Positions 2,919 through 15,767 of a DNA stretch of 32,000 bases are shown here, in pieces (positions within the stretch are counted from its first letter, which is position 1; each line of letters opens with the position of its first letter). The notes beneath the pieces are model-generated. The model did not search any database and was not told the DNA's origin. It saw only the letters and a list, made by a program, of their open reading frames with translations. Origin of the DNA: Cupriavidus necator. GTDB lineage: Bacteria > Pseudomonadota > Gammaproteobacteria > Burkholderiales > Burkholderiaceae. The stretch spans positions 990,001 through 1,022,000 of the forward strand of contig NZ_CP066019.1 of the NCBI RefSeq assembly GCF_016127575.1, written 5' to 3'. The translations under genes and the position numbers were made by a program.

Positions 2919-3005
2919 ATGCATGATCACGACGAGGATACCCCGGAGACCATCCCTGATGGTCTCCGTCACGTCAGTCTGCCGGGCTACCTGACGCAGC
3001 CATGA
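2919..3005 (+). CDS. 28-codon upstream ORF (MHDHDEDTPETIPDGLRHVSLPGYLTQP) whose stop overlaps the selB start (ATGA)
   Basis: ATG at 2919 preceded by AAGGATAGGGGAG. TGA at 3003-3005 overlaps the selB ATG at 3002-3004. selB itself has no SD. Very short, so coding status is unproven. Confidence 0.3.
   Translation: MHDHDEDTPETIPDGLRHVSLPGYLTQP
2945..2967 (+). promoter_or_regulatory. Perfect 10-bp stem / 3-nt loop hairpin inside the uORF, 35 nt before the selB start
   Basis: GGAGACCATC-CCT-GATGGTCTCC. The 5' arm sequence GGAGACCAT is duplicated at 2912-2920, where it covers the uORF SD and start codon. Confidence 0.45.
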
Positions 3006-4912
3006 TCGTCGGCACGGCAGGACATATCGATCATGGCAAGACCTGCCTGGTCAGGGCGCTGTCGGGCATGGATACCGACCGCCTGGAGGAAAGGAAGGCG
3101 CGCGGCTTCTCGATCGAGCTTGGCTATGCGTACGTGCCGCTCGAGAACGGCGACGTGCTCGGCCTGGTCGATGTCCCGGGCCATCAAAAGCTGATTCACA
3201 CCATGGCCGCGGGCGCATGCGGCATCGACTTCGCGCTGCTCGTGGTCGCCGCCGATGACGGCGTGATGCCGCAAACGCGCGAGCACCTGGCCATTGTGCA
3301 ACTGCTCGGCATCCGGCGCGGCGCGATCGCGTTGACCAAGGTAGATCGCGTGAATGACGTGCGGCTACGGCAGGTGCGTGAGGAGATCGCGTCTTTCCGG
3401 CGCGGCAGCATGCTGGAAGACGCCCCGGTTTTTGAAACCTGTGCAATGCGCGCCGACGACCCGGGTGTGAACGCGTTGAAGCGGCACCTGCATGCGGCGG
3501 CGGCCGCGTCGCGAACGAAGCGCGACGACGGGCTGTTCCGCCTTGCGGTTGACCGGGTCTTCACGCTTGCCGGGCAGGGGACGATCGTGACGGGAACCGT
3601 GGTGTCCGGGCGCATCCATGTCGGCGACAGGGTGTTGCTCGCGCCGAAGAACGAGTCTGTGCGCGTGAGCGGCATCCATGCGCAGAATCGTCCTGCTGCT
3701 GCCGGGCGGGCGGGGCAGCGCTGCGCGCTGAACCTGGCCGGCATCGACAAGGGCGCGATCGAGCGCGGTGACTGGGTGGTCGATGTGCGCCTGGCGCAGG
3801 CGTCGGAGCGCATCGATGTGATGCTGACCCTGTTGCCGGACGCCCCTGCGCTGGAGCACTGGGCGCCCATGCATGTTCACCTGGGCACGCAGCACCAGGT
3901 GGCGCATGTCGCGCTGCTCGATGGCCCGACGCTTGCGCCCGGCCAGCGCGCGCGCGTGCAGCTTGTGTTCGAGCGGCCGGTATGCGCGCTGCCTGGCGAT
4001 CCCTTTGTCGTGAGGAACGCGCAGGCCAGCCGCACCATCGGCGGCGGCGATGTACTGGATCCGTTCGCGCCCGCGCGCAAGCGCCGTTCCCCGGCGCGGC
4101 TGGCTTGGCTCGACGCGATGCAGGCCATGCTTGACACCGGATCGGTCGGGGCATTGCTCGAGCAGGCGCCACACGGGCTGTCGCGCGCATTGCTGGAACG
4201 CCTGAGCGGCATGCCGGCGGCGGCCATCGAGCTGCCGTGTGACACGCGCGTGATCGAACTTCCGGGCAACGATGCCTTGCTGGTGTCCGGCGCGGCGTGG
4301 CGGGCGCTGACGGGGCGATTGACCACTGCGCTCCGGCAATTCCACCAACGCTCGCCGGATGTGCTTGGCCCGGAGGTGGCGCGCTTGCGCAGGATCGCTG
4401 CACCGCTGGCGCAAGACGCGTTGTGGTGCGCGCTCGTCGATGACGCCTGCGCGCGCGGCGAGATCGTCCGGACCGGCCCCTGGCTGCACCTGCCTGAGCA
4501 CACCGTGACGCTCGACGACGCGGATCGCACGCTCGCCGCGACGCTGCAGCAGGACATGAAAGCGGGGCGCTTCGATCCGCCATGGGTGCGCGAGCTGGCG
4601 AGCGCGCATGGCGTGCCGGAGGACAAGGTGCGGCAACTGATGCGCAAGCTCGCGCGTCATGGCGAGACGTTTCAGGTCGTGCATGACCTGTTCTATGATC
4701 CGGAGGCTATTCGCGAGCTGGCCTTGCTCGCCGCTGTCGACGCCAGCAAGAACGCCGGTACGGTCGTCGCCGGGGCATTTCGCAATGCCACCGGACTCGG
4801 ACGAAAGCGTGCGGTTCAGGTCCTGGAGTTTTTTGACCGTGTTGGCTATACGCGCTTCGACCGTGGCCGCCATCTGGTGCGCACGGACAGTCGTTGGCTG
4901 GAGTTGCTCTGA
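3002..4912 (+). CDS. selB: Selenocysteine-specific translation elongation factor SelB
   Basis: 636 aa. GTPase motifs GHIDHGKT (G1), DVPGH (G3), TKVD (G4). Long C-terminal winged-helix extension ending in GLGRKRAVQVLEFFDRVGYTRF, typical of the SECIS-binding WH4 domain. Confidence 0.9.
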   Translation: MIVGTAGHIDHGKTCLVRALSGMDTDRLEERKARGFSIELGYAYVPLENGDVLGLVDVPGHQKLIHTMAAGACGIDFALLVVAADDGVMPQTREHLAIVQLLGIRRGAIALTKVDRVNDVRLRQVREEIASFRRGSMLEDAPVFETCAMRADDPGVNALKRHLHAAAAASRTKRDDGLFRLAVDRVFTLAGQGTIVTGTVVSGRIHVGDRVLLAPKNESVRVSGIHAQNRPAAAGRAGQRCALNLAGIDKGAIERGDWVVDVRLAQASERIDVMLTLLPDAPALEHWAPMHVHLGTQHQVAHVALLDGPTLAPGQRARVQLVFERPVCALPGDPFVVRNAQASRTIGGGDVLDPFAPARKRRSPARLAWLDAMQAMLDTGSVGALLEQAPHGLSRALLERLSGMPAAAIELPCDTRVIELPGNDALLVSGAAWRALTGRLTTALRQFHQRSPDVLGPEVARLRRIAAPLAQDALWCALVDDACARGEIVRTGPWLHLPEHTVTLDDADRTLAATLQQDMKAGRFDPPWVRELASAHGVPEDKVRQLMRKLARHGETFQVVHDLFYDPEAIRELALLAAVDASKNAGTVVAGAFRNATGLGRKRAVQVLEFFDRVGYTRFDRGRHLVRTDSRWLELL

Positions 4913-4968
4913 CAGGGAAAACCGCCTGCCGCCATTGAGATTCCTGGGAATTCTCAAGCGTTGCGGGG

Positions 4969-5016
4969 CTCTCCACTCCTCCCTCCTCCCCACACTACAT
5001 CCTTATCCACAAATTC
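4969..5016 (+). terminator. G-free C-rich tract, candidate Rho utilisation (rut) site after selB
   Basis: 48 consecutive nt with 0 G and 25 C, counted by hand, in a genome that is otherwise G-rich. Starts 57 nt after the selB stop. Confidence 0.3.
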
Positions 5017-5021
5017 GAGGC

Positions 5022-5044
5022 CGTATTGCGGTGACAGCAATACG
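5022..5044 (+). other. 8-bp perfect hairpin CGTATTGC-GGTGACA-GCAATACG
   Basis: Seen directly. No U-tract follows it and the loop does not fit an anticodon loop. Confidence 0.3.
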
Positions 5045-5310
5045 ACGATTCGCACTTTCGTAACGAACCTCCACCACGCGATCCCGGAATCGGCATCCTG
5101 TGCGCCAGCGGACGCGATGCGCGTGCGTCCGCGGCTTCGATGGAATAGGAGATAAATATCATAATTAAATTGGATATAAAGATCATGCTCATTTGAAATT
5201 TGAAATACATCGATTAGTCATCATTTTCCCATTTTTAATGCACTGCACGAAAACTGTGCGTGAATTTAAAAAGAATTCAGCGAATATCGTCCGAATACGG
5301 CATTTGGTGC

Positions 5311-5326
5311 TGGCATGCTACTTGCG
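5311..5326 (+). promoter_or_regulatory. Sigma54-type -24/-12 promoter candidate (TGGCAT-N5-TTGCG)
   Basis: GG at 5312-5313 and GC at 5324-5325, exactly 10 nt apart. Located at the downstream edge of a 28% GC island, about 170 nt upstream of the flavoprotein start. Confidence 0.4.
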
Positions 5327-5408
5327 CTAGGTATGTCCAGGCGCCAACGGCGGCGCAACATTAACTAGTAGTTACGACCAACGGTGGTCGTGATTCCGGG
5401 ACAAAGGC

Positions 5409-5455
5409 GTCCGAGTCAGGCGAGCGGTGCTCGCTGGGCCGGATGCATTTTTTTT
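5409..5455 (+). terminator. Intrinsic-terminator-like hairpin + T8 run inside the operon leader (possible attenuator)
   Basis: Core stem GCGAGC-GGT-GCTCGC (5420-5434), extendable with wobbles and bulges to about 5409/5445. TTTTTTTT follows at 5448-5455, 41 nt before ATG 5496. Confidence 0.4.
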
Positions 5456-5495: not shown

Positions 5496-7466
5496 ATGCT
5501 GCAATCGATACCAAACACAAAGGCTGTCCAAGCGCCGGTCGTCGTGATCGGCACCGGGCCGGTGGGCGTGCGGCTTGCGCAGGACTTGCATCGTCGCGAT
5601 CCTTCCATTCCGCTGGTGATCTACGGCAACGAACCATGGGAGCCATACAACCGCGTGCGCCTGTCTTCCTTTCTTGCCGGCGATGCGAGCTGGGCCACGC
5701 TCACGCAGGGGCTTGCACTGCCGCAGGGACCCGCGATCGCAGCGCGGCTCAATTGCGCAGTGGTGCATGTCGATCGCGGCGCGCAGGAGATTGAAGACTC
5801 GGCCGGGCGCACGCAACGCTATTCCCACTTAGTGCTGGCCACCGGATCACGTCCGCGGATCCCGGACGTGCCGGGCATCGGCCAGGCCAATGTCTACGTT
5901 TTCCGTGACATGAACGATACCCAGCGGCTGCTCGCACGCCGTATCCGCAGCCGCCGTACGGTGGTGTTGGGCGGGGGGCTGCTGGGCCTGGAAGCGGCGC
6001 GCGCAATGCAGCGCTTCAACACCGAGGTGCTGGTCATCGAGAACAACGACCGGCTGATGATGCAGCAATTGGACCAGGCCGCCGCGGATCTGCTGCGCGC
6101 CCATGTCGAGGCGGCCGGAATCCAGGTATTGACGGGCGCCGCAGTGAAACGCGTGCATGGTGAAGGAGCGGTTACCGGCATCACCCTGCGCACCGGCGAT
6201 GTCATCGAATGCGATACCGTCGTGATTGCCGCCGGCATCAAGCCGAACACCGACCTGGCCCTGCAGGCCGGCCTGAATGTGGGGCGCGGCATTCGCGTCA
6301 GCGACCGCATGCAGACGTCCGATCCACATATCTACGCCGTTGGCGAATGCGCGGAACATCGCGAACAAGTGTACGGGATCGTCGCCCCTGGCCTGGAACA
6401 GGCGGCAGTCGCCGTGCATGCAATATGCGGCGGCGACGCCAGCTATGCCGGTTCGCTACAGGCAACGCGCCTGAAAGTGCTCGATATGCCGGTGTTCAGC
6501 GTGGGCCGCGTCGGCGAGCATGACGGTATCGGCTCGGCGAGCACGGCGGCTTATGAAGACAAAAAAACTGGCATCTACCGGAAGGTGCTGGTCGAGCGCG
6601 GTCATCTGATTGGCGCGATGGCGGTCGGCGAAGGCGCAGACCTGCGTCGGCTGCAGGACGCGGTCAGCGGCAATCACCGGATACTGCCATGGCAGCTTTG
6701 GCGGTTTCGCAGGACCGGCTCGCTGTGGCAGGAGGGCGAAGCCAGCGTCGTCAACTGGCCGGCAAGCGCGGTCGTCTGCAACTGCACCGGCGTTACCCGC
6801 GGTCAGCTTGGCGAAGCGGCGGCTGCCGGGTGCCGTTCGATCGAGCAACTCGCAGCGTGCACGCGTGCCTCTACGGTATGCGGTTCGTGCAAGCCGTTGC
6901 TGGCCGAGTTGGCCGGTGGCGCGGTGATGCGAGAACCGGTGCGCGCGCATCGTCCGCTCCAGGGCGCGGCCGCGGCGGCACTGGCGCTCGCCTTGCTGGC
7001 ACTCGTTGCGCCTGCCATCCCCTTTGCGAAGACGGTGCAGCTGCAGTGGCGCTGGGACGAGCTATGGCTGGTGAGTTTGTATAAGCAGGTCAGCGGATTT
7101 TCCATTCTCGGGTTGAGCGTACTTGCCCTGCTTCTCTCATTCCGGAAGCGCTGGTCGCGCCTTGGCTATGGCGATTTTGCCATCTGGCGCGTGCTGCATG
7201 TGGTGCTCGGATTGGGTGTGCTGGCGGGACTCTATGCGCATACGGGAGGCAGGCTTGGCAGCCAGCTGAATTTCCTGTTGATGGCGAGTTTCACCGGCCT
7301 GATTCTGGCGGGCAGCATGTCGGGGCTGATGATCGCGCAAGGGCATCGCCTGCCAGTGGCACTGGTTCGGCGCTGGCGCGACAACAGCACCTGGGTGCAC
7401 ATCTTGCTGTTCTGGCCGGTACCCGTGCTGCTCGGGTTCCACATTCTCAAAACTTACTATTTCTAG
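5496..7466 (+). CDS. Fusion protein: NirB-N-terminal-like FAD/NAD(P)H oxidoreductase + BFD-like [2Fe-2S] domain + 5-TM membrane domain with two H-x13-H pairs (putative di-haem b)
   Basis: Start chosen at ATG 5496 (GTG 5493 is an alternative). The track ORF start at 5427 would translate a T8 terminator-like run. Motifs: VVVIGTGPVG and VVLGGGLLG Rossmann folds, CNC...CGSC (aa 451-488 of the 679-aa ORF). Five hydrophobic helices with H591/H605 and H658/H672. Confidence 0.8.
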   Translation: MLQSIPNTKAVQAPVVVIGTGPVGVRLAQDLHRRDPSIPLVIYGNEPWEPYNRVRLSSFLAGDASWATLTQGLALPQGPAIAARLNCAVVHVDRGAQEIEDSAGRTQRYSHLVLATGSRPRIPDVPGIGQANVYVFRDMNDTQRLLARRIRSRRTVVLGGGLLGLEAARAMQRFNTEVLVIENNDRLMMQQLDQAAADLLRAHVEAAGIQVLTGAAVKRVHGEGAVTGITLRTGDVIECDTVVIAAGIKPNTDLALQAGLNVGRGIRVSDRMQTSDPHIYAVGECAEHREQVYGIVAPGLEQAAVAVHAICGGDASYAGSLQATRLKVLDMPVFSVGRVGEHDGIGSASTAAYEDKKTGIYRKVLVERGHLIGAMAVGEGADLRRLQDAVSGNHRILPWQLWRFRRTGSLWQEGEASVVNWPASAVVCNCTGVTRGQLGEAAAAGCRSIEQLAACTRASTVCGSCKPLLAELAGGAVMREPVRAHRPLQGAAAAALALALLALVAPAIPFAKTVQLQWRWDELWLVSLYKQVSGFSILGLSVLALLLSFRKRWSRLGYGDFAIWRVLHVVLGLGVLAGLYAHTGGRLGSQLNFLLMASFTGLILAGSMSGLMIAQGHRLPVALVRRWRDNSTWVHILLFWPVPVLLGFHILKTYYF

Positions 7467-7478
7467 AGCCTACCAGCG

Positions 7479-8900
7479 ATGGCAAGCAAAAGCCGCAGAG
7501 TTCTGTGGGTCTACTGGGGTGTGTTGAGCGTGGCGATGCTGGCATATTTCTCGATTGGGCTGTTCTACAAGGAGGCGGCGAGGCATCCGCTCCTGGTATC
7601 CGCGCGCATGGCATTCCTGCCGGGTCAGACCAGCCACGGCCACTACCAGATCGAACTGGCGTGCGAGAGCTGCCACAGCAAGCCGTTCGCCGGCCCGGAG
7701 GCCATCCAGGAGGCATGCGCCAAATGCCATGAGAATGAGCTGAAGGAAGCCAGAGATTCGCATCCGGCCAGCAAGTTCGACGATCCGCGCAATGCCGAGC
7801 GGCTGGGAAAGATCGATGCGCAGGCATGCGTCACCTGCCATGCCGAGCACAAGCCGCGCACGACGCTTGCCATGGGCGTAACGCAGCCGCAGGACGTCTG
7901 CTACCACTGTCATGCCGGTCCGGACGAGATGCCGTCGGACCACAAGGACTTCAAGTTCGACAGCTGCACCGCGGCCGGCTGCCATAACTATCACGACAAT
8001 CGCGCGCTGTACGAAGATTTCCTGCTAAAGCATGCGCAGGGCGGCAAGCTGAACGAAAAGCCGCTGCTGCCGCAGCGCGATTTTGCCGTAGCGGTGCGTG
8101 AGATGAGCGGCTACCCGGCGGCGAAGTATCCGTTCCGGACACTCTCGGCAGCCGAGCAGGATGCGCCGCACGGCAAGCGCGGCAGTACGGCGTTGCAGGC
8201 CGACTGGCTCGGCACCGCGCATGCCAGGGCTGGCGTCAATTGCACCGGTTGCCATGCATCGAAGGGCAAGGACGGTTCCACGAAATGGAGTGACCACCCA
8301 GGCAGCCCAGCAGCGTGCGAAGGATGCCATGCGGCCGAGGCCAAGGGGTTCCTGGCGGGAAAGCACGGCATGCGACTGGCGCAAGGCCTGACGCCGATGA
8401 CGCCCGGCGACGCCCGTCTGCCAATGAAGGAAGCGGCTGCCCACACGGAACTTGGTTGTACTTCCTGCCATTCTGCCCATCGCTTCGATGCCAGGACAGC
8501 GGCGGTGGAGTCATGCATGAGTTGCCATGACGACAAACACACCCTGGCCTACAAGCGTTCGCCGCACTACGCGCTGTGGCAAAAGGAGACCGCCGGACAG
8601 GCGCCGCCGGGTTCTGGCGTGACATGCGCCAGCTGCCACATGCCGCGGGTGCGGATGTCCACCGACGAAGGCTCGCGCATCGTGGTTCAGCACAACCAGA
8701 ACGATACCCTGCGGCCGAACGAAAAGATGATACGGACCACGTGCATAAGCTGCCACGGGCTCGGCTTCTCGATCGACGCGCTGGCCGACAAGACGTTGAT
8801 CGACAACAACTTCAAAGGCATGCCGGCCCGGCACGTGAAGAGTATCGACATGGCTGTGGCCAAGGATGCGGAAACGCGCAGCAAGCGAAGCACGCCTTAG
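7479..8900 (+). CDS. Membrane-anchored multihaem cytochrome c (10 CxxCH + 1 CX4CH)
   Basis: N-terminal TM helix VLWVYWGVLSVAMLAYFSIGLF. Haem motifs: CESCH, CAKCH, CVTCH, CYHCH, CTAAGCH, CTGCH, CEGCH, CTSCH, CMSCH, CASCH, CISCH. Starts 12 nt after the upstream gene. Confidence 0.85.
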   Translation: MASKSRRVLWVYWGVLSVAMLAYFSIGLFYKEAARHPLLVSARMAFLPGQTSHGHYQIELACESCHSKPFAGPEAIQEACAKCHENELKEARDSHPASKFDDPRNAERLGKIDAQACVTCHAEHKPRTTLAMGVTQPQDVCYHCHAGPDEMPSDHKDFKFDSCTAAGCHNYHDNRALYEDFLLKHAQGGKLNEKPLLPQRDFAVAVREMSGYPAAKYPFRTLSAAEQDAPHGKRGSTALQADWLGTAHARAGVNCTGCHASKGKDGSTKWSDHPGSPAACEGCHAAEAKGFLAGKHGMRLAQGLTPMTPGDARLPMKEAAAHTELGCTSCHSAHRFDARTAAVESCMSCHDDKHTLAYKRSPHYALWQKETAGQAPPGSGVTCASCHMPRVRMSTDEGSRIVVQHNQNDTLRPNEKMIRTTCISCHGLGFSIDALADKTLIDNNFKGMPARHVKSIDMAVAKDAETRSKRSTP

Positions 8901-8954
8901 CTGCGCGTCGTTCTGGCGCTTGCGGGCTTCTTTTCAACAGTGAAGGAGAGAGAA

Positions 8955-9530
8955 ATGAAACGATATGCGAACTTGCAGGCAAGCAGTCTGGCAATGGGCG
9001 CGGCGCTGGCCGTTAGCGCCTTTCCCGCGCACGCATCCGGCATCAGTCCAAAGGAAATGGCGGATGCCCTGCACGCCGTGATGGCGGCCGACCGGACCGT
9101 GTATACCCGCCTGATCGTCAACCGCCTGCAGAACGAAGAGAAGGTGATCAAGGCGACTGAGCACTGGAAGGATGAGAAGACATTGGTGCTGCCGGCGCAG
9201 ATGTTTCGCTTCGGCGCGGAGGAGGTAGCCAAGAGCAAGCCGAATTTCAGTTATTCGCTGTTGTCCCTGTGGCCGCTGAATAAGCAGAACGCTGCGAAAA
9301 CCCCAGTGGAGAAGGAAGGGCTGGACTTCGTCGCCAAGAACCCCGGAAAGAACTTCTACAAGGAAGAGACTCTCGGCAAGAAGACCTATTTCACCGCCGT
9401 GTACGCCGACACGGCGATCGCGCCGGCCTGCGTCACTTGCCACAACGGCCATAAGGACAGCCCGCGCACCAATTTCAAGATTGGCGACGTGATGGGTGGC
9501 GTGGTGCTGCGCATCCCTGTCAGCAATTGA
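8955..9530 (+). CDS. Periplasmic DUF3365 (Tll0287-like) c-type haem protein
   Basis: ATG 8955 preceded by GAAGGAGAG. Signal peptide MKRYANLQASSLAMGAALAVSAFPAHA. Single CVTCH motif near the C-terminus, followed by GDVMGGVVLRIPV. Ends at TGA 9528-9530 (see finding on an in-frame extension). Confidence 0.8.
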   Translation: MKRYANLQASSLAMGAALAVSAFPAHASGISPKEMADALHAVMAADRTVYTRLIVNRLQNEEKVIKATEHWKDEKTLVLPAQMFRFGAEEVAKSKPNFSYSLLSLWPLNKQNAAKTPVEKEGLDFVAKNPGKNFYKEETLGKKTYFTAVYADTAIAPACVTCHNGHKDSPRTNFKIGDVMGGVVLRIPVSN

Positions 9531-9610
9531 GCCAGCGAAAAGCTGAGCGATGACGACGTGAAGGCAGTAGCGGATTACATGATCGCAATTGTCAAGTAAA
9601 GGAATATTCC

Positions 9611-10027
9611 ATGACACCGCAAGAGATCACCCTGGTACAAAGCTCCTGGCAGAAGGTGGTGCCGATCAAGGAAAAGGCCGCCGAGCTGTTCTACGGCAAG
9701 CTGTTCGAAATGGATCCCTCGCTGAGGCCACTGTTCAAGGGCGACACCGTCGAACAGGGGCGCAAGCTGATGGCGATGATCAATGCCGTCGTCACGAAAC
9801 TGGACCAGCTCGACGACATCGTTCCCGCTGTACAGGAACTCGGCCGGCGCCACGTCGCCTATGGCGTCAAGGACGAGGACTACGACACCGTGGCCGGCGC
9901 CCTGCTGTGGACACTGGGTGCCGGCCTCGGGGACGCCTTTACCGATGAGGTGAAGGGCGCCTGGACCAGCGCCTACGTGATCCTGGCCGGGGCCATGAAA
10001 GACGCCGCCGCGACCGCCTGGGACTGA
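9611..10027 (+). CDS. Single-domain globin, no signal peptide
   Basis: 138 aa. N-terminal LVQSSWQKV...ELFYGKLFEMDPSLRPLFKG and proximal-His region ELGRRHVAYGV are typical of bacterial globins. RBS AAGGA lies 6 nt upstream. Confidence 0.8.
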   Translation: MTPQEITLVQSSWQKVVPIKEKAAELFYGKLFEMDPSLRPLFKGDTVEQGRKLMAMINAVVTKLDQLDDIVPAVQELGRRHVAYGVKDEDYDTVAGALLWTLGAGLGDAFTDEVKGAWTSAYVILAGAMKDAAATAWD

Positions 10028-10045: not shown

Positions 10046-10702
10046 ATGCTGGAAGCAGTGTCACTGACCGCCGCGCGCGGCGACCGGCCGATTTTCATCA
10101 GGCTGGGGCTGCGCGTGGAGCCCGGGCAAGCGGTGCATGTCACAGGCGCCAACGGCAGCGGCAAGACTACCCTGCTGCGAATCCTGGCTGGCCTGCTGCG
10201 CCCGGAATCGGGCGAGATCCGATGGAACGGGTGTGCGGTGGCGGCGAGCCGGCCGCTGCCCGATTCCGCATACCTCGGTCACCGCAACGGCCTGAAAGCG
10301 GAGCTGAGCGCGCTGGAGAACCTGCGCAGTGCCTGCGCGCTGTACGGTTGCCGCACGGATCGTGCGCACCTGCAGCGGGTGCTGGCACAAGTCGGGCTGG
10401 CCGCTGGTGCCGACACCGCTCTCGGGCTGTTGTCGCAGGGGCAGCAGCGCCGGGTTGCGCTGGCGCGTGTGCTGTCCAGTGGCGCGAAGCTATGGCTGCT
10501 CGACGAGCCGACCACCGCACTCGACCAGTCCAGCATCCGGGCCTTTGAGGGATTGTGCGAACACCATCTGCAGTCGGGCGGCATGCTGGTGTTTGCGAAC
10601 CACTACCCGCTGCGGCTGGTGGCCGCGCGGATGCGCGAGCTTGCCATCCCGGCGATCGCCGATCGATCGCAGCAGGAGGCGGCATGCTGGATCCGGTCCT
10701 GA
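10046..10702 (+). CDS. ccmA: Haem exporter ATP-binding protein CcmA
   Basis: Walker A GANGSGKTT, ABC signature LSQGQQRRV, Walker B LWLLDEP. RBS AGGAGG. Confidence 0.9.
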   Translation: MLEAVSLTAARGDRPIFIRLGLRVEPGQAVHVTGANGSGKTTLLRILAGLLRPESGEIRWNGCAVAASRPLPDSAYLGHRNGLKAELSALENLRSACALYGCRTDRAHLQRVLAQVGLAAGADTALGLLSQGQQRRVALARVLSSGAKLWLLDEPTTALDQSSIRAFEGLCEHHLQSGGMLVFANHYPLRLVAARMRELAIPAIADRSQQEAACWIRS

Positions 10703-11355
10703 AACTGATCGCGCGTGAGCTGCTGCTGGCGTGGCGTCGCCCGTCGGCGGTGCTGACACCGCTCGCCTTTTTTGTCGCGGTGGTCAGCCTGTTTCCGCTG
10801 GCGGTTGGCCCGGAGCGGATGTTTCTCGCCAGGCTGGCGCCCGGTGTGATCTGGGTCGCCGCCTTGCTGGCGACGCTGCTGGGCATGGAGCGTTTGTTCG
10901 AATCCGATTTCCGCGACGGCAGCCTGGAAGTTATCGCGCTCGCGCCGCAGTCCCTGACCTTGATGGTGCTCGGCAAGGTGACCGGCTTCTGGCTCGGGGC
11001 GGGCCTGCCGCTGGTGTTGCTGACGCCACTGCTTGGCGTTCAGCTCGGCGTGCCTGACGGCGAGCTGGCACAACTGGCACTGTCGCTGCTGCTCGGTACG
11101 CCGACGCTGTGCCTGATCGCGGCAATCGCTGCCGCGCTGACGCTGTCGCTGCAGCGCGGCGGCCCGCTGCTGGCATTGCTGGTGCTGCCACTGGCAGCGC
11201 CGGTACTGGTGTTCGGCTGCGGCGTCGCCGCCGCCAGCACTGCGGCGGAATTGCAGGCGAATCTTTCGCTGCTGGGGGCATGCCTGCTGACTGCCGTTGC
11301 GTCGGCGCCATGGGCCACCGCCGCGGCGCTCAGGATTGGATTGGAGTCTGTCTGA
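10684..11355 (+). CDS. ccmB: Haem exporter membrane protein CcmB
   Basis: Start at MLDPVLKLIARELLLAWRRP, overlapping the ccmA end by 19 nt. Polytopic, about 223 aa, in the expected gene-order position. Confidence 0.9.
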   Translation: MLDPVLKLIARELLLAWRRPSAVLTPLAFFVAVVSLFPLAVGPERMFLARLAPGVIWVAALLATLLGMERLFESDFRDGSLEVIALAPQSLTLMVLGKVTGFWLGAGLPLVLLTPLLGVQLGVPDGELAQLALSLLLGTPTLCLIAAIAAALTLSLQRGGPLLALLVLPLAAPVLVFGCGVAAASTAAELQANLSLLGACLLTAVASAPWATAAALRIGLESV

Positions 11356-12092
11356 TGGCCACCTTGAATATCTGGAAGTACGCCGCGCCCCAAGCCTTCT
11401 ATCCGCTCGCCGGGCATCTGGTGCCATGGTTTGGCGCTGCTGCCGCAGTGTCTGGCGCGATGGCGCTATACCTTGGCCTGGTGGTGGCGCCGCCCGATTT
11501 CCGCCAGGGCGAGGTGTACCGCATCCTGTTCATCCATGTCGCGGCCGCCTGGATGTCGATGTTCATCTACGTGGTGATGGCCGTCTACGCCGGGCTTGGC
11601 CTGGTGTTCGGCACCCGTCTGTCGTCGCTGATGGCAACCGCGCTGGCGCCCAGCGGTGCGTTGTTCACCTTCCTCACGCTGTGGACCGGCGCACTTTGGG
11701 GCAAGCCGACCTGGGGCACCTACTGGGTATGGGACGCGCGCATGACCTCCGAGCTGCTGCTGCTGTTCCTCTATCTCGGCTTCATCGCGCTGCAGGCCGC
11801 GATCGACGATCCACGGCGCGCAGCCAGGGCCGGCGGGGTGCTGGCGCTGGTCGGATTGATCAACCTGCCGGTCATCTATTTCTCCGTGACCTGGTGGAAC
11901 ACGCTGCATCAGGGGGCATCGGTCAGTCTGACCAAGGCGCCGCAGATGGCCGGCATCATGATCGTTGCCATGCTGGGCATGACCTTCGCCTTCTGGATGT
12001 ATGCGATCGCCGTCGCGCTGGCGCGGGTGCGCTGCCTGATCGCGCGCAGCGAGGCCGGCCGCAGGTGGTGGCGGCAAGGCGAGGACATCTGA
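11355..12092 (+). CDS. ccmC: Haem lyase/exporter subunit CcmC
   Basis: Start MATLNIWKY overlaps the ccmB stop (TGATG). Tryptophan-rich WWD motif WGKPTWGTYWVWDARMT. Confidence 0.9.
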   Translation: MATLNIWKYAAPQAFYPLAGHLVPWFGAAAAVSGAMALYLGLVVAPPDFRQGEVYRILFIHVAAAWMSMFIYVVMAVYAGLGLVFGTRLSSLMATALAPSGALFTFLTLWTGALWGKPTWGTYWVWDARMTSELLLLFLYLGFIALQAAIDDPRRAARAGGVLALVGLINLPVIYFSVTWWNTLHQGASVSLTKAPQMAGIMIVAMLGMTFAFWMYAIAVALARVRCLIARSEAGRRWWRQGEDI

Positions 12093-12136
12093 AACCGACG
12101 CGCACTCGGATCAACGCGCTCAACAGCAGGGAGGGA

Positions 12137-12334
12137 ATGATGGATCTGAATGGATTTTTTTCGATGGGTGGCCAAGGCGCTTTCGTCTGGGGCGCATACG
12201 GCGTGACGGCGCTGCTGTTCGCTGTCGAAGTCCTGCTGGTACTGCGCTGCGGCGTGTCGACTCGGCGCACGCTGGCAGATGCGCACCCCGCCGCGCCCGG
12301 CATGCGGCTGCAAGAGCAACGGGGTACGCAATGA
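12137..12334 (+). CDS. ccmD: Small membrane protein CcmD
   Basis: 65-aa ORF MMDLNGFFSMGGQGAFVWGAYGVTALLFAVEVLLVL with a single TM helix. RBS GGGAGGGA. Lies between ccmC and ccmE. Confidence 0.7.
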   Translation: MMDLNGFFSMGGQGAFVWGAYGVTALLFAVEVLLVLRCGVSTRRTLADAHPAAPGMRLQEQRGTQ

Positions 12335-12789
12335 GGATGCTCAACAAGGCGCGCGGGCGACGCCTGCTCATGATCGCCGTGGGATTGCTGTTGCTTTGGA
12401 CGGCTGCCGCATTGATCCTGAATGCCTTCCGCAGCAATATGGTGTTCTTCTTCTCGCCAAGCCAGCTCGCGGCAGGGGAGGGCCCGCGCGACAAGGCCTT
12501 CCGCCTTGGCGGCATGGTCGAGCGCGGCAGCCTGCGGCGCGCCCCGGATGGGCTGGGGGCGTCCTTCATACTGACCGATACGGTCAACCGGGTGCAGGTG
12601 GTCTACCGCGGCATGCTGCCCGATTTGTTTGGCGAAGGGCAGGGTGCCATTGCGTTCGGCCGCATGGGTGGCAACGGCATCTTCGCGGCCGAGGAGGTGC
12701 TGGCCAAGCATGATGAAGTGTACATGCCGCCGGAGGTCGCCGCTTCGCTCAAGCTCGCCGAAGCGGCGCAGAAAGGTGGGGCCAGATGA
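12331..12789 (+). CDS. ccmE: Haem chaperone CcmE
   Basis: N-terminal anchor and covalent haem-binding His motif LAKHDEVYMPPEV. ATGA overlap with ccmD. Confidence 0.9.
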   Translation: MRMLNKARGRRLLMIAVGLLLLWTAAALILNAFRSNMVFFFSPSQLAAGEGPRDKAFRLGGMVERGSLRRAPDGLGASFILTDTVNRVQVVYRGMLPDLFGEGQGAIAFGRMGGNGIFAAEEVLAKHDEVYMPPEVAASLKLAEAAQKGGAR

Positions 12790-14756
12790 TTCCCGAACTC
12801 GGTCAATGGTGCCTGGCGCTTGCGCTCGCGCTGGCGCTGTCGCAAGCGGCGCTGCCGCTCCTGGGGGCGGTGCGCGGCGTCGATGGCTGGATGCGCACCG
12901 CACATGCCGCAGCACGCATGCAGTTCCTGTTTCTCTCGCTGGCCTTTGTTTTCCTGTCGGCGGCGCTGCTGGGGAACGATTTTTCGGTGCGCTATGTCGC
13001 AAACCACTCAAACAGCAGCCTGCCGGCGATCTATCGCTTTGCCGCCGCCTGGGGCGGCCATGAGGGATCGTTGCTGCTTTGGTCACTACTGCTGGCAGCC
13101 TGGTCGGCCCTGGTGAGCTGGCGCAGCGACAGCCTGCCGCTGATGTTCTCGTCACGCGTGCTGGCCGTCCTGGGCATCGTGTCGAGCGGCTTCCTTTGCT
13201 TCATGCTGTTCACCTCGAATCCTTTCGAGCGCCTGTGGCCGGCGCCCCCGGACGGCGGTGACCTCAACCCACTGTTGCAGGACATCGGGCTGGTGATCCA
13301 CCCGCCGATGCTGTATATCGGCTATGTCGGACTGGCGGTGCCCTTCGCGTTCTCGGTGGCCTCCCTTCTGACCGGGCGCATCGATTCACTCTGGGCACGC
13401 TGGTGCCGGCCATGGACCATCGGCGCCTGGCTGTTCCTGACACTCGGCATCGCCCTTGGCAGTGCCTGGGCCTACTACGAACTGGGTTGGGGCGGCTGGT
13501 GGTTCTGGGATCCGGTCGAGAATGCTTCCTTCATGCCATGGCTGCTTGCCACCGCGCTCATGCATTCGCTGGCGGTCACGGAAAAGCGGGGCATATTCGC
13601 CGGCTGGACCCTGTTGCTGGCGATCGCCGCCTTTGGCCTGAGTTTGCTGGGCGCCTTTCTGGTGCGCTCCGGCGTGCTGACCTCCGTGCATGCCTTTGCC
13701 GCGGATCCGGGGCGCGGCGTGTTCCTGCTGTCATTGTTCGCATTCATCGTCGGCGGCGCACTCTGTTTGTACGCGTGGCGCATGGGGCGCGTGCGGAGCA
13801 GTTCGGCGTTCGCGCCGTTCTCGCGCGAGGGGGTGCTGATGCTGAACAATCTGTTCCTGGCCGTAGCAACCGCGTCTGTTTTGCTGGGCACAGTCTATCC
13901 GCTGGCGCTCGATAGCCTGGGCCTGGCGAAGATATCAGTCGGTGCGCCGTATTTCGAGGCGGTGTTTGTGCCGCTGGTCGTGCCAATGCTGTTTCTGATG
14001 GGCGTGGGCCCGCTGATGCGCTGGAAGCATGCTTCGCTGCCGGATCTGAAGCGTCGGCTGAAATGGGCGCTGGCCGCGGCGCTTGCCTTTGGCCTGGTCA
14101 CGCCCTGGCTGCTAGGCACATCGAGCATCGGCATCAGCCTCGGCCTGGCCCTGGCCGGCTGGATCACCTGTGCTCTGGTCGCGACCGCGGCCGAGAGCGT
14201 GCGCGACCGGCGCGGGGCAGGAGCGTTGCGCAGTCTGGCCGCCCGTCCGCTGTCGTTCCACGGCATGTTGATCGCGCACCTTGGCATTGCAGTGTGCATT
14301 GTCGGGGTCACCATGGTCGGCGGCTATGCAGGCGAACGCACGGTGAGCATGTCGGTCGGCGACTCGCTCGAGTTCCGCGACTACCGCTTCCGCTTCGACT
14401 CGGTGGAAACACTGGCGCGCGACAACTACCAGGCCCGGCGCGCGAGCATTACGGTGACGCGAGACGGCCAGCTGGTGACATTGCTGCGGCCAGAGAAGCG
14501 CTTCTATCCGGTTCAGCGCAAGGTGATGACCGAGGCGGCGATCGATCCCGGCCTGACGCGTGACCTCTATGTATCGCTTGGCGAAGCGTTGCCCGACGGT
14601 AGCTGGACTTTGCGGCTTTACCACAAGCCGTTCATAAGCTGGATCTGGTCCGGCTGCCTGCTGATGGCATTTGGCGGCTTGCTTGCGCTCGGCGACCGCC
14701 GCTATCGGGCGCGCATCGCGCCGGCCGCCACGCCGCTGAACCTGGGGGTGGAGTGA
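12786..14756 (+). CDS. ccmF: Cytochrome c haem lyase subunit CcmF
   Basis: 656 aa, polytopic, with WWD motif WGGWWFWDPVEN. Overlaps the ccmE stop. Confidence 0.95.
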   Translation: MIPELGQWCLALALALALSQAALPLLGAVRGVDGWMRTAHAAARMQFLFLSLAFVFLSAALLGNDFSVRYVANHSNSSLPAIYRFAAAWGGHEGSLLLWSLLLAAWSALVSWRSDSLPLMFSSRVLAVLGIVSSGFLCFMLFTSNPFERLWPAPPDGGDLNPLLQDIGLVIHPPMLYIGYVGLAVPFAFSVASLLTGRIDSLWARWCRPWTIGAWLFLTLGIALGSAWAYYELGWGGWWFWDPVENASFMPWLLATALMHSLAVTEKRGIFAGWTLLLAIAAFGLSLLGAFLVRSGVLTSVHAFAADPGRGVFLLSLFAFIVGGALCLYAWRMGRVRSSSAFAPFSREGVLMLNNLFLAVATASVLLGTVYPLALDSLGLAKISVGAPYFEAVFVPLVVPMLFLMGVGPLMRWKHASLPDLKRRLKWALAAALAFGLVTPWLLGTSSIGISLGLALAGWITCALVATAAESVRDRRGAGALRSLAARPLSFHGMLIAHLGIAVCIVGVTMVGGYAGERTVSMSVGDSLEFRDYRFRFDSVETLARDNYQARRASITVTRDGQLVTLLRPEKRFYPVQRKVMTEAAIDPGLTRDLYVSLGEALPDGSWTLRLYHKPFISWIWSGCLLMAFGGLLALGDRRYRARIAPAATPLNLGVE

Positions 14757-15316
14757 TGCGACGGTTTGTTCCTGCTGCGATCTTCATCATGCTCTTGCTG
14801 CTGCTCGGCCTCGGGCTTGCGCCGAGACCAAGCAGTCCGCCATCCCCCCTGATCGGCAAGAGCGCGCCGGCTTTCAGGCTGCCCTTGCTGGACGCGCCTC
14901 AGCAAACTGTGGCGCCTGCCGATCTGTGCGGACAGGTCTGGGTGCTGAACGTCTGGGCATCGTGGTGCGGCGCCTGCCGCGAGGAGCATCCGAAGCTGAT
15001 GGAGCTGGCGCGCCTTACCCGGGTGCCCATCTATGGGCTGGATTACAAGGATGGGCGCGACGAGGCCGGTGCCTGGCTTGCGCGGCACGGCAACCCTTAT
15101 CGCGCCAGTCTGTTCGATGCCGATGGCCGGGTCGGCATCGACTACGGCGTGTACGGTGTTCCGGAAACCTTCGTGATTGACCGTCGCGGCGTGATACGCC
15201 ACAAGCATGTCGGTCCGCTGACCGAGGAGGTGGTGCGCAAAGAACTGTTGCCGATGTTGGCGGCGCTCGAGAACGAGCCGGACGTAGCACTGGCAAGCAG
15301 GGGAAAAGGGGGCTGA
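14753..15316 (+). CDS. ccmG: Thiol:disulfide oxidoreductase CcmG/DsbE
   Basis: Thioredoxin-fold motif WASWCGACREEH and GVYGVPETFVID. Start is GTG 14753 or ATG 14756, overlapping the ccmF stop. Confidence 0.9.
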   Translation: MMRRFVPAAIFIMLLLLLGLGLAPRPSSPPSPLIGKSAPAFRLPLLDAPQQTVAPADLCGQVWVLNVWASWCGACREEHPKLMELARLTRVPIYGLDYKDGRDEAGAWLARHGNPYRASLFDADGRVGIDYGVYGVPETFVIDRRGVIRHKHVGPLTEEVVRKELLPMLAALENEPDVALASRGKGG

Positions 15317-15317
15317 C

Positions 15318-15767
15318 ATGAAATCAAGCGTTCGCCGGTGGTGCGTACTTGGGTGTTTGCTGGGCGGTCTGCTGGCCAATGCAATCGGCGCCGAGCCGGC
15401 ACAGGCCGATGCCGAGCAGGCTCTGCAGGCCCGGGTCACGAGGCTGGCCGTCGACCTGCGTTGCGTGGTATGCCAGAACCAGTCGCTTGCCGATTCCAAT
15501 GCCAGCCTGGCGATTGACTTGCGCAGCGAGATTGCCGGCATGCTGCGCGATGGGAAAAGCGAGCGCGATGTGACCGAGTTCATGGTGCAGCGCTACGGCG
15601 ATTTCGTGCTGTACAGCCCGCCGCTGCAGCCCACCACCTGGCTCCTGTGGCTTGGCCCGTTCCTGCTCATGTTGGTGGGAATGGTGGTGCTCTACCGGCA
15701 TGCTGCCGGATCGCGGGCACGCGAGCGGGCGGGTAAGGCTGGCGGCAGCGAGGAGGGAAGCATATGA
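15318..15767 (+). CDS. ccmH: Cytochrome c maturation protein CcmH
   Basis: Signal peptide plus the LRCVVCQNQSLADSNA motif, with a C-terminal TM helix. Confidence 0.85.
   Translation: MKSSVRRWCVLGCLLGGLLANAIGAEPAQADAEQALQARVTRLAVDLRCVVCQNQSLADSNASLAIDLRSEIAGMLRDGKSERDVTEFMVQRYGDFVLYSPPLQPTTWLLWLGPFLLMLVGMVVLYRHAAGSRARERAGKAGGSEEGSI

Follow-up and report, generated by a model that had tools for sequence, protein, structure and literature searches.

A conserved, predicted NAD(P)H-to-periplasm electron-transfer module linked to nitrate assimilation in Cupriavidus necator, with a possible role in N-oxide removal

Background

Cupriavidus necator carries a cluster of four genes encoding a cytoplasmic NAD(P)H flavoprotein fused to a membrane domain, a cytochrome c with 11 haem motifs, a periplasmic haem protein of the DUF3365 family and a globin. 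The question that this locus raises is where such a chain would send the electrons of NAD(P)H, and to what end. The cluster lies within a stretch of 32,000 nucleotides (nt), here called the window (NCBI RefSeq assembly GCF_016127575.1, contig NZ_CP066019.1, positions 990,001 to 1,022,000 of the forward strand), in which position 5496 corresponds to position 1,070,065 of AM260480.1, chromosome 2 of C. necator H16. The four genes bear the tags H16_B0948 to B0951, with ccmA2 following as B0952 (PMC3734047), and are referred to below as g1 to g4. A preliminary description of the locus, drawn from the sequence alone, had reported four co-directional open reading frames (ORFs) separated by 12, 54 and 80 nt, and these lie as follows, with protein lengths in amino acids (aa):

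5496-7466, + strand: g1 (H16_B0948), 656 aa, NAD(P)H flavoprotein with BFD and membrane domains
7479-8900, + strand: g2 (H16_B0949), 473 aa, membrane-anchored 11-haem cytochrome c, 12-nt gap after g1
8955-9530, + strand: g3 (H16_B0950), 191 aa, periplasmic DUF3365 monohaem protein, 54-nt gap after g2
9611-10027, + strand: g4 (H16_B0951), 138 aa, cytoplasmic globin, 80-nt gap after g3

We consider it very probable that the module forms a transmembrane electron chain fed by NAD(P)H, with g3 as its last member, and we are highly confident that it is linked to nitrate assimilation both in its regulation and in its genomic setting. That its chemistry is the removal of N-oxides is a tentative proposal. 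For the reading as a whole, in which the chain from NAD(P)H to the periplasm serves as an N-oxide guard of nitrate assimilation, chemistry included, we estimate a probability of about 0.4.

Results

Predicted components of the electron chain

The domain make-up that the preliminary description had proposed for the four genes agrees with our hidden Markov model and domain searches. In g1, domain searches recovered Pyr_redox_2 (E 2e-59), Rubredoxin_C and Fer2_BFD, and the protein divides into three parts:

g1 aa 15-390: FAD/NAD(P)H ferredoxin-reductase module
g1 aa 426-472: BFD-like [2Fe-2S] domain, with Cys428/430/462/465
g1 aa about 485-656: five-helix membrane domain, with His568/His582 on helix 3 and His635/His649 on helix 5

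The N-terminal half of NirB likewise joins a FAD/NAD(P)H module to a BFD [2Fe-2S] domain, and over about its first 470 residues g1 shows homology both to this half (E 4e-119) and to NorW (E 3e-49). The protein nevertheless falls below both cut-offs, as it does below every NCBIfam cut-off, and its membrane domain takes the place of the sirohaem/[4Fe-4S] half. The NirB model TIGR02374 covers g1 over model positions 1-465 of 794 only, with 399 bits against a cut-off of 578, and domain searches of g1 found no sirohaem/[4Fe-4S] (NIR_SIR, NIR_SIR_ferr) domains; the warning in the preliminary description that a NirB annotation would be wrong was therefore justified. An AlphaFold2 model of g1, built without cofactors, has a pLDDT of 78. 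Its best PDB matches in Foldseek are NADH-ferredoxin reductases (putidaredoxin reductase, BphA4 and rubredoxin reductase), enzymes that pass single electrons to small FeS partners, and each of the best 50 matches is confined to the flavoprotein part.

Five hydrophobic helices make up the last 170 residues of g1. Unchanged in 24 g1 homologues are the four BFD cysteines, the four histidines His568, His582, His635 and His649, and a basic loop, R550-K551-R552; the histidines are spaced identically on the two helices that bear them (H568-x13-H582 and H635-x13-H649). The positive-inside pattern read from the sequence fits a topology in which the N-terminal domains face the cytoplasm and the C-terminus lies outside, and given that topology His568 and His635 would lie toward the cytoplasmic face and His582 and His649 toward the periplasmic face. 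From this geometry of the histidine pairs we infer a two-haem transmembrane wire. The path from NAD(P)H through FAD, [2Fe-2S] and the four-histidine membrane domain to the 11-haem cytochrome and the DUF3365 protein, which had been put forward as continuous, fits the predicted topology.

The second protein, g2, begins with a single N-terminal membrane helix (aa 8-26), followed by ten CXXCH motifs and one CX4CH. All 11 haem motifs and 12 further histidines are unchanged in 24 g2 homologues, and the anchor residues Trp10, Trp13 and Gly27 are nearly invariant. Because of these additional histidines and conserved anchor residues, the pattern suggests a bis-His wire whose anchor may make a specific contact with g1. 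The C-terminal half has a weak profile likeness to octahaem nitrite reductase and NrfA (E about 1e-7) that involves non-catalytic haem pairs only, in that a C-terminal GVxCAxCHMPR ... CxxCH pair corresponds in the alignment to the two final haems of TvNiR and NrfA. Like these enzymes g2 is a periplasmic multihaem protein, but it has 11 haems and a membrane anchor, contains no CXXCK and offers no recognisable catalytic pocket. The NrfA models NF008339 and TIGR03152 give g2 25 and 20 bits against cut-offs of 595 and 692, the DmsE and GSU2203 decahaem families match it weakly (51 bits against a cut-off of 192), and NCBIfam holds no specific model for either g2 or g3.

The third protein, g3, is recognised as Tll0287-like/DUF3365 (PF11845, sCache_heme) with 69.4 bits against a cut-off of 24.1; it contains one CXXCH, and its N-terminus reads as a predicted cleavable signal peptide. 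The motif residues C190, C193 and H194 are unchanged in 54 g3 homologues. Beyond the motif g3 has no cysteine, and no axial cysteine of the Tll0287 type; in 38 of the 54 homologues the mature part likewise contains only the two CXXCH cysteines, and no third cysteine is conserved. It is also the most conserved protein of the module, with 58-87% identity across phyla even where the flavin part of g1 drops to 35%. We conclude that g3 truly belongs to the sCache_heme family, as a stand-alone protein of a Cys-less subtype, and its haem probably has an exchangeable sixth position, judging from the missing axial residue.

DUF3365 has been reclassified as a haem-binding Cache domain in a recent preprint (Deshpande et al. 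2026, bioRxiv 10.64898/2026.02.01.703092). It reports that a member lacking the axial cysteine has an exchangeable sixth ligand and binds nitric oxide (NO) with the tightness of dedicated NO sensors, that a stand-alone Cys/His protein of P. putida lacks such NO binding, and that each of the three sCache_heme proteins assayed forms superoxide from O2 (they "readily produce superoxide"). The haem 'sensor-like' domain of the preliminary description accordingly stands as a haem domain, now classed as Cache and not as PAS. Within the family, for which the Tll0287 structure 5B82 is available, g3 shares PF11845 and the CXXCH motif and is stand-alone like about half of the members. It differs in lacking the cysteine axial ligand of Tll0287 and of the P. 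putida stand-alone protein, resembling instead the NO-binding signalling members, and in being always encoded beside a dedicated electron-supply chain; no multihaem cytochrome or globin is mentioned in the preprint text as far as its genomic-context sections were covered.

The fourth protein, g4, consists of a globin domain alone, with no hydrophobic N-terminal segment or signal peptide. Its helix positions were inferred by alignment to Vitreoscilla haemoglobin (Vgb) and Hmp, not from a structure, and place Tyr28 at B10, Gln49 at E7 and His81 at F8 of the haem pocket, residues present in at least 95% of 48 homologues. The combination of Tyr-B10 and Gln-E7 is the pocket of NO-dioxygenating flavohaemoglobins. 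While g4 shares all three residues with Vgb and the globin domain of Hmp, it has no fused reductase: it covers positions 4-136 of 399 on the Hmp model, with 80 bits against a cut-off of 432, and the record label 'Hmp' was rejected for want of a fused FNR-like FAD/NAD(P)H reductase domain. Among solved structures in the PDB, 3wfw (E 2e-32) and 3s1i (E 4e-27) come closest to g4, with 3s1i/3ubc titled 'hemoglobin-like flavoprotein'; we take 3wfw and 3s1i/3ubc to be the 'Hell's Gate' globins of Methylacidiphilum. By co-encoding only, g1 is a candidate partner reductase of g4.

Conservation and variants of the module

A profile of g2 was scanned against one genome per GTDB species, and 80 loci were kept for comparison. 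The gene was found in at least 546 species genomes. Those sampled include Betaproteobacteria (Burkholderiales, Methylophilaceae, Gallionellaceae and Thiobacillus), Gammaproteobacteria (Chromatiales, Thiotrichales, Methylococcales, Cellvibrionales and Granulosicoccus) and, from other lineages, Verrucomicrobiota, Nitrospirota and Terriglobia. Counted as present over visible loci by tblastn with the proteins of the window, a fused g1 lies directly 5' of g2 in 70/72 loci and g3 directly 3' of it in 74/78, while the globin g4 accompanies them in 60/74 (about 81%; 58 downstream and 2 upstream of g1). An extra class I cytochrome c of 128 aa is encoded between g3 and g4 in 42/74 loci. Homologues of g1 and of g2 each number in the thousands, many of them on shared contigs. 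Because the order g1-g2-g3-g4 recurs across phyla, the module cannot be dismissed for lack of conserved synteny, an outcome that the preliminary description had allowed for.

A profile of the g1 membrane domain was also searched against 1.84 billion representative proteins and returned 727 clusters, 560 of them at E <= 1e-10, with the domain always C-terminal. Most of these proteins resemble g1, although some differ. Each of ten members that were scanned is of the flavoreductase type, complete or truncated, and nine contain BFD. The flavin module is either Pyr_redox_2 or the unrelated FNR-type FAD_binding_6/NAD_binding_1, and some FNR-type variants add an EF-hand or two to three cyclic-nucleotide-binding domains (P0254, P0314 and P0367; loci L088, L087 and L085). 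In all four variant contexts the next gene encodes a 10- or 11-haem g2 homologue; three of them then continue with a near-identical homologue of g3, and the contig of the fourth ends soon after g2. Since the variants exchange the flavin module and keep g2 and g3, we recognise a three-gene core with interchangeable flavin input, as expected if the first protein merely feeds electrons from NAD(P)H to the membrane domain. The universal core is thus the reductase-BFD-membrane protein, the 11-haem cytochrome and the haem-Cache protein. Domains of the EF-hand and cyclic-nucleotide-binding type would imply an electron export gated by Ca2+ or cyclic nucleotides, reminiscent of NOX5.

Several individual loci depart from the common form. 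One variant of the EF-hand/cyclic-nucleotide type is labelled 'nitric-oxide synthase' by JGI, and g1 versions from Myxococcota (P0380 and P0374; Polyangium and Byssovorax) have a low-complexity linker of roughly 570 aa, rich in Pro, Ser and Ala, from BFD to the membrane domain. At the Myxococcota locus L086, g3 is predicted to be a lipoprotein and a gene for an FHA-domain sigma54 activator lies nearby. Two gammaproteobacterial metagenome-assembled genomes (L061 1716-2390 and L064 2788-3438) encode a stand-alone membrane domain of 216-224 aa directly 5' of g2, with no flavoprotein, and in L061 g3 lies upstream instead; the other four of six apparent stand-alone membrane proteins were contig-end truncations. 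Two further assemblies, L033 and L014, are labelled 'Halobacteria archaeon' and 'Streptomycetaceae', while their module proteins and nrt/nasT neighbours look proteobacterial; they are probably mis-binned contigs and these labels not the true hosts.

Association with nitrate-assimilation genes

To describe the surroundings of the module, neighbouring ORFs were clustered and recurrent families annotated, with the exclusion of clustered families 9, 10, 12 and 16, which are antisense shadow ORFs of high-G+C loci. Counts by tblastn with a reference panel in 81 loci were as follows:

NrtA-like nitrate ABC binding protein: 38/81 loci
NrtB: 34/81 loci
NrtC/D: 36/81 loci
ANTAR response regulator (NasT type): 29/81 loci
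porin with a partial alginate-export match: 11/81 loci
assimilatory nitrate reductase (nasA): 7/81 loci
COX2-like/COX1-like/SCO1/ORF cluster: 3/81 loci

In 17/62 loci the gene directly 3' of the module's globin, in the same orientation, is nrtA. Of the 42 fully flanked loci, 26 have a nas or nrt gene no more than 10 kb away, and these span Beta- and Gammaproteobacteria, Verrucomicrobiota and Nitrospirota. In three loci (L004 12497-15721, L014 and L023) the module is followed without a break by four genes, whose products are COX2-like, COX1-like (484 aa), SCO1/SenC and an ORF product of 201 aa, an array that resembles the norSY-senC-orf1 (sNOR) NO reductase cluster of ammonia oxidisers. Locus L004 continues into a cysG-like gene and a full-length nirB gene.

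Promoter, leader and expression in C. necator

The region upstream of g1 contains an AT-rich island at 5140-5300 (31% G+C) and a 170-nt leader, with the following features:

5244-5260, + strand: NtrC-like dyad TGCAC-N7-GTGCg, one mismatch to TGCAC-N7-GTGCA, about 50-65 bp upstream of the -24 element
5311-5325, + strand: sigma54 -24/-12 element TGGCATGCTACTTGC, the sole match in 32 kb, 0.3 expected
5341-5356, + strand: hexaloop hairpin 1, GCGCC-AACGGC-GGCGC
5373-5392, + strand: hexaloop hairpin 2, TACGACC-AACGGT-GGTCGTG
5399-5412, + strand: hexaloop hairpin 3, GGAC-AAAGGC-GTCC
5406-5455, + strand: terminator-like long stem ending in U8 (5448-5455), its 5' arm overlapping hairpin 3

The sigma54 control proposed in the preliminary description is supported by this single element and by its recurrence, a comparable element being found 5' of g1 in 37/69 related loci against 0.34 expected from shuffles. 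The dyad is a weak candidate activator site for which position alone is suggestive; it is kept as a candidate only, because the window holds two such matches against 2.4 expected, which is not significant by itself. All three hairpins (5341-5412) carry A..G.. hexaloops, the signature of ANTAR targets, and a weak match of the leader to the Rfam narK RNA agrees with this type. At least one hairpin of this kind occurs in 29/69 related leaders (shuffles 2.9 +/- 1.8) and at least two in 9/69 (0.09 expected). The segment 5326-5470 folds with a minimum free energy of -63.6 kcal/mol (z = -3.9), every shuffle being weaker. The stem at 5406-5455 was not listed by the terminator scan because its U run is partly paired within the stem. 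Its overlap with hairpin 3 looks like a NasT-type antitermination switch, with putative RNA binding by an ANTAR protein.

Expression data agree with control by nitrogen. H16_B0948 is named among nitrogen-stress-induced genes, beside the microarray of Brigham et al., with a sigma54 consensus upstream of most (PMC3734047). The RNA-seq of the same study (Table S2), which compares the nitrogen-depleted phase with exponential growth, gives log2 changes of 4.50 for B0948 (g1), 5.20 for B0950 (g3), 4.48 for B0951 (g4), 4.73 for ccmA2 and 4.42 for ccmG2, an increase of 22-37-fold. The assimilatory nitrate/nitrite genes B0776-B0780 change by log2 5.6-6.25, and nasD, narK5 and assimilatory nitrate reductase are also listed as induced (PMC3734047). 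Because a sigma54 promoter, an ANTAR leader, co-induction with nas genes and nrt/nasT neighbours in other genomes all point the same way, regulation looks like nitrogen control through NtrC and sigma54 combined with NasT-type control, and not like a NorR system.

Probable extent of the operon

Immediately downstream of the module lies a second cytochrome c maturation system, identified by gene calls and Pfam:

10046-16801, + strand: ccmABCDEFGHI (ccm2; H16_B0952 onward)

The start of ccmA is 18 nt past the end of g4, and the terminator scan found no + strand terminator between them. On account of this short gap, the lack of a terminator and the co-induction of ccmA2 and ccmG2, the transcription unit probably extends past 10027 and through ccmI to about 16801. 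The 'four-gene' unit of the preliminary description therefore stands as a conserved module, but the local operon probably includes ccm2 as well and the universal core is smaller by one gene. Presumably ccm2 matures the 12 c-haems of the module; it looks like a lineage-specific dedicated system, since C. necator is the only one among 80 related loci with ccm genes at the module. A megablast of the region against the plasmids of PLSDB returned nothing but a 49-base NirB fragment.

Just past ccmI, at about 17055-18143, lies a gene for an ApbC/Mrp-type Fe-S carrier (FeS_assembly_P plus ParA/NUBPL). The same type of carrier divergently adjoins an FNR-type variant of the module on an unrelated metagenome contig (L085 4612-5697, minus strand), and on these two cases it may serve the BFD cluster.

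Discussion

Proposed mechanism

We propose that NAD(P)H is oxidised at the cytoplasmic FAD module of g1, which would pass single electrons to the BFD [2Fe-2S] cluster. These would cross the membrane by two predicted b-haems, the one nearer the cytoplasm ligated by His568/His635 and the one nearer the periplasm by His582/His649, to reach g2, which, anchored in the inner membrane, would gather and store electrons in the periplasm and pass them on to the sCache_heme protein g3, probably the end-point of the chain. About half of the loci encode the additional class I cytochrome c, and there electrons may also continue to that protein. We infer an outward flow on thermodynamic reasoning, because the redox span and the membrane potential favour that direction and transfer inward to NAD(P)+ would be uphill. 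In the periplasm, g3 and g2 would reductively remove NO, and possibly nitrite or hydroxylamine, or the extra cytochrome c could carry the electrons to an NO reductase as an alternative route. In the cytoplasm, g4 would dioxygenate NO to nitrate, perhaps re-reduced by the flavin/FeS module of g1. The module would then be an accessory guard of nitrate and nitrite assimilation in two compartments. In C. necator we take its four genes to be the promoter-proximal part of a sigma54-dependent operon, gated by NasT-type antitermination, that continues into ccm2.

Four lines of evidence lead us to N-oxides as substrates. A Cys-less sCache_heme protein binds NO tightly (bioRxiv 10.64898/2026.02.01.703092), and g3 lacks the axial cysteine; g4 has the Tyr-B10/Gln-E7 pocket; three loci run into COX2-like, COX1-like and SCO1 genes; and there is a precedent for a globin and a flavoprotein among nas genes. 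In the narK-bjgb-flp-nasC cluster of Bradyrhizobium japonicum, the globin Bjgb and the flavoprotein Flp have the demonstrated role of clearing NO that the assimilatory nitrate reductase makes as a by-product (Cabrera et al. 2016, PMC4724949). Both systems combine a single-domain globin with an NAD(P)H flavoprotein among nitrate-assimilation genes, with NasS/NasT control shown there and a candidate NasT-type leader here. They differ in that the FAD/NAD(P)H protein Flp is soluble and supplies NasC as well, whereas g1 has BFD and a membrane domain of predicted di-haem type and is always accompanied, on the periplasmic side, by the 11-haem cytochrome and the haem-Cache protein, and in that a nitrate reductase gene is usually not adjacent at module loci. 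The role in N-oxide or hydroxylamine detoxification that the preliminary description suggested thus fits the context better than its alternatives, but without the NorR-type regulon that had been offered in its support.

The predicted working order of the chain is familiar from other systems. NOX, DUOX, FRE and bacterial MsrQ with Fre likewise move electrons from NAD(P)H through flavin and two stacked, His-held membrane haems to an outer acceptor, and EF-hand variants of the module recall NOX5. The differences are nonetheless substantial: g1 has no PF01794 match even at E <= 10, its membrane domain has five helices and not six, its reductase is N-terminal, a [2Fe-2S] BFD domain is interposed, the flavin module is Pyr_redox_2 in most members, and the acceptor is a multihaem cytochrome c and not O2 or Fe(III) directly. 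By analogy the module would work like a NOX/FRE-type exporter with a multihaem wire, yet it is not a member of the NOX/FRE family. Literature searches found no paper or curated family describing the cluster, which accords with the preliminary view of it as uncharacterised; the 'uet' undecahaem cluster of Tenderiales and the globins of Fe-oxidisers proved to be unrelated, and a paper on the NtrC regulon of Methylomonas does not mention the module. What is new is the combination: systems that export NAD(P)H electrons across the membrane are a known kind, and so are nas-linked systems that protect against N-oxides.

Several observations weigh against this interpretation. The four variant contexts contain neither a globin nor nas genes, and 16 of the 42 fully flanked loci lack any nas or nrt neighbour; the module of C. 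necator itself is tied to nitrate assimilation by co-regulation only, and the RNA-seq induction was on ammonium depletion, nitrate not being added (PMC3734047). Because the three-gene core also occurs apart from the globin and nas genes, and with cyclic-nucleotide-binding or EF-hand domains, its core chemistry may be more general and need not concern nitrogen oxides. In the leader, the Rfam narK RNA (RF03032) matches 5352-5413 with 28.1 bits (E 0.0026), below the gathering score of 43.2. The membrane domain of g1 belongs to no recognised family: it has no significant match in Pfam or PDB, whether searched as a single sequence, as 12 members or as a profile, and the matches to DUF4079 and to DUF4405 and Ni_hydr_CYTB of the di-haem cytochrome b clan are marginal (2-3 of 12 members, E 0.01-0.065). 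Finally, as 12 invariant non-motif histidines accompany 11 haems and CXXCK is absent, g2 appears to have no obvious open catalytic haem and may be only a wire; its AlphaFold2 model, at a mean pLDDT of 49.5, is too poor for a fold search.

Alternative interpretations

More ambitious than the N-oxide guard is the possibility that the module represents a new class of exporter, built from BFD and an unclassified di-haem membrane domain with interchangeable flavin modules, in which the g2/g3 end-point would be a new N-oxide reductase. Such an enzyme might, for example, convert NO or hydroxylamine to ammonium and so both detoxify and assimilate, with switching by cyclic nucleotides or Ca2+ in other lineages. 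We consider this unlikely; should g3 turn out to be a novel N-oxide reductase, the system would belong to a category of its own. Another proposal, which we judge quite unlikely, makes the module a periplasmic assimilatory reductase, g2 and g3 reducing nitrite or hydroxylamine to ammonium as a quinone-independent form of nitrogen scavenging. Induction under nitrogen limitation, the setting in nrt/nas clusters and the distant relationship of the C-terminal half of g2 to octahaem nitrite reductase and NrfA agree with it; 11 haems could hold the six electrons needed for nitrite or the two for hydroxylamine, and databases name g2 'ammonia-forming cytochrome c nitrite reductase'. However, g2 has no CXXCK, scores 20-25 bits on NrfA models with cut-offs of 595-692, resembles these enzymes in non-catalytic haem pairs only and has enough invariant histidines for bis-His ligation of all 11 haems, and the globin would be left unexplained. 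Cytoplasmic nitrite reduction also seems to be covered in at least some hosts, because nasD is co-induced in C. necator and a full-length NirB is encoded beside the module in one locus. An analogue of NADPH oxidase is improbable in our estimation. Here g3 would reduce O2 to superoxide or peroxide, or set a periplasmic redox signal, and in nas operons superoxide could trap NO as peroxynitrite and then nitrate. The predicted chain follows the NOX/DUOX logic of NAD(P)H, flavin, two membrane haems and an outside acceptor, H-x13-H pairs lie on two helices, and there are variants with EF-hand or cyclic-nucleotide-binding domains, EF-hands being carried by NOX5 and DUOX. Superoxide formation by the three sCache_heme proteins assayed (bioRxiv 10.64898/2026.02.01.703092) points the same way, but autoxidation of reduced haem in vitro is no evidence of function. 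Nor is there a ferric-reductase sequence match, the domain order is reversed, an 11-haem wire would be needless for reducing O2 at the membrane face, the regulation would be unexplained and making superoxide under nitrogen starvation has no obvious benefit.

It is equally improbable that g3 is a sensor, that is, a periplasmic receptor of NO, nitrite or redox state kept ferrous by g1 and g2 and signalling to nitrate uptake or regulation. The DUF3365/sCache_heme domain is a sensor fold, a Cys-less member has the properties of an NO sensor (bioRxiv 10.64898/2026.02.01.703092), and g3 is the most conserved component; yet it is stand-alone, no transducer recurs beside it, more than 11 haems and a dedicated NAD(P)H dehydrogenase would be a costly way to keep one sensor haem reduced, and NasS/NasT already senses nitrate and nitrite (PMC4724949). 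Reduction of ferric iron, other metals or oxyanions in the periplasm, feeding iron to the enzymes of nitrate assimilation, or export to an extracellular acceptor as raised in the preliminary description, is highly improbable. Multihaem wires are typical of metal reducers, g2 has weak matches to the DmsE and GSU2203 decahaem families and a porin gene is adjacent in 11 loci, but these decahaem models stay at 51 of the 192 bits required, no outer-membrane cytochrome or MtrB-type barrel recurs at related loci, and the porin, of 440 aa, matches about a third of the alginate-export profile and lies in nitrate clusters. Control by sigma54 and an ANTAR leader also speaks against iron, although no search was made for a Fur box or iron regulation. 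Hardly credible, finally, is the analogy with NorR-type NO-stress regulons in the preliminary description, by which an NO-sensing enhancer-binding protein would act on the sigma54 promoter. That promoter, a globin and a haem domain of the NO-binding type are indeed present, but no GT-N7-AC box occurs in the 399 bp upstream (4913-5311), where 1.4 are expected by chance, the window contains no enhancer-binding protein gene, induction follows nitrogen depletion with no NO source added, and the ANTAR leader and the nasT/nrt neighbours point to NtrC and NasT.

Other genes in the window

Upstream of the module lies selB (H16_B0947, the tag being from PMC12271211) at 3002-4912, alone and without an adjacent selA, selC or selD; it is induced by 5.1 log2 on H2/CO2 along with formate dehydrogenase (PMC12271211). 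A 583-bp intergenic region, which holds the promoter and leader of the module, separates the two. Further redox genes beside the module locus are a 494-aa Rieske [2Fe-2S]-Pyr_redox_2 fusion (32-1516, + strand) and a convergent gene for a DyP-type peroxidase (1513-2481, - strand), whose ends overlap by 4 nt.

Conclusions

The module is found in at least 546 species-level genomes of at least four phyla, including C. necator H16 and Thiobacillus denitrificans. Its cost is about 15 haems and an Fe-S cluster, and it must matter to the cell, because so costly a system is made in C. necator just as nitrogen runs out. Many g1 homologues are named 'nitrite reductase (NADH) large subunit' in JGI/IMG, and g2 homologues appear in NCBI and JGI as 'ammonia-forming cytochrome c nitrite reductase subunit c552', 'NrfA' or 'formate-dependent nitrite reductase'. 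We reject both labels, as g1 and g2 fall outside the NirB and NrfA families by the criteria of those families, and counts of nirB and nrfA in metagenomic surveys of the nitrogen cycle may consequently be inflated by the module. If our interpretation is true, cytoplasmic NAD(P)H would directly reduce periplasmic cytochromes, bypassing the quinone pool, and the module would be an overlooked component of nitrate assimilation that gives stand-alone haem-Cache (DUF3365) proteins their first physiological context.

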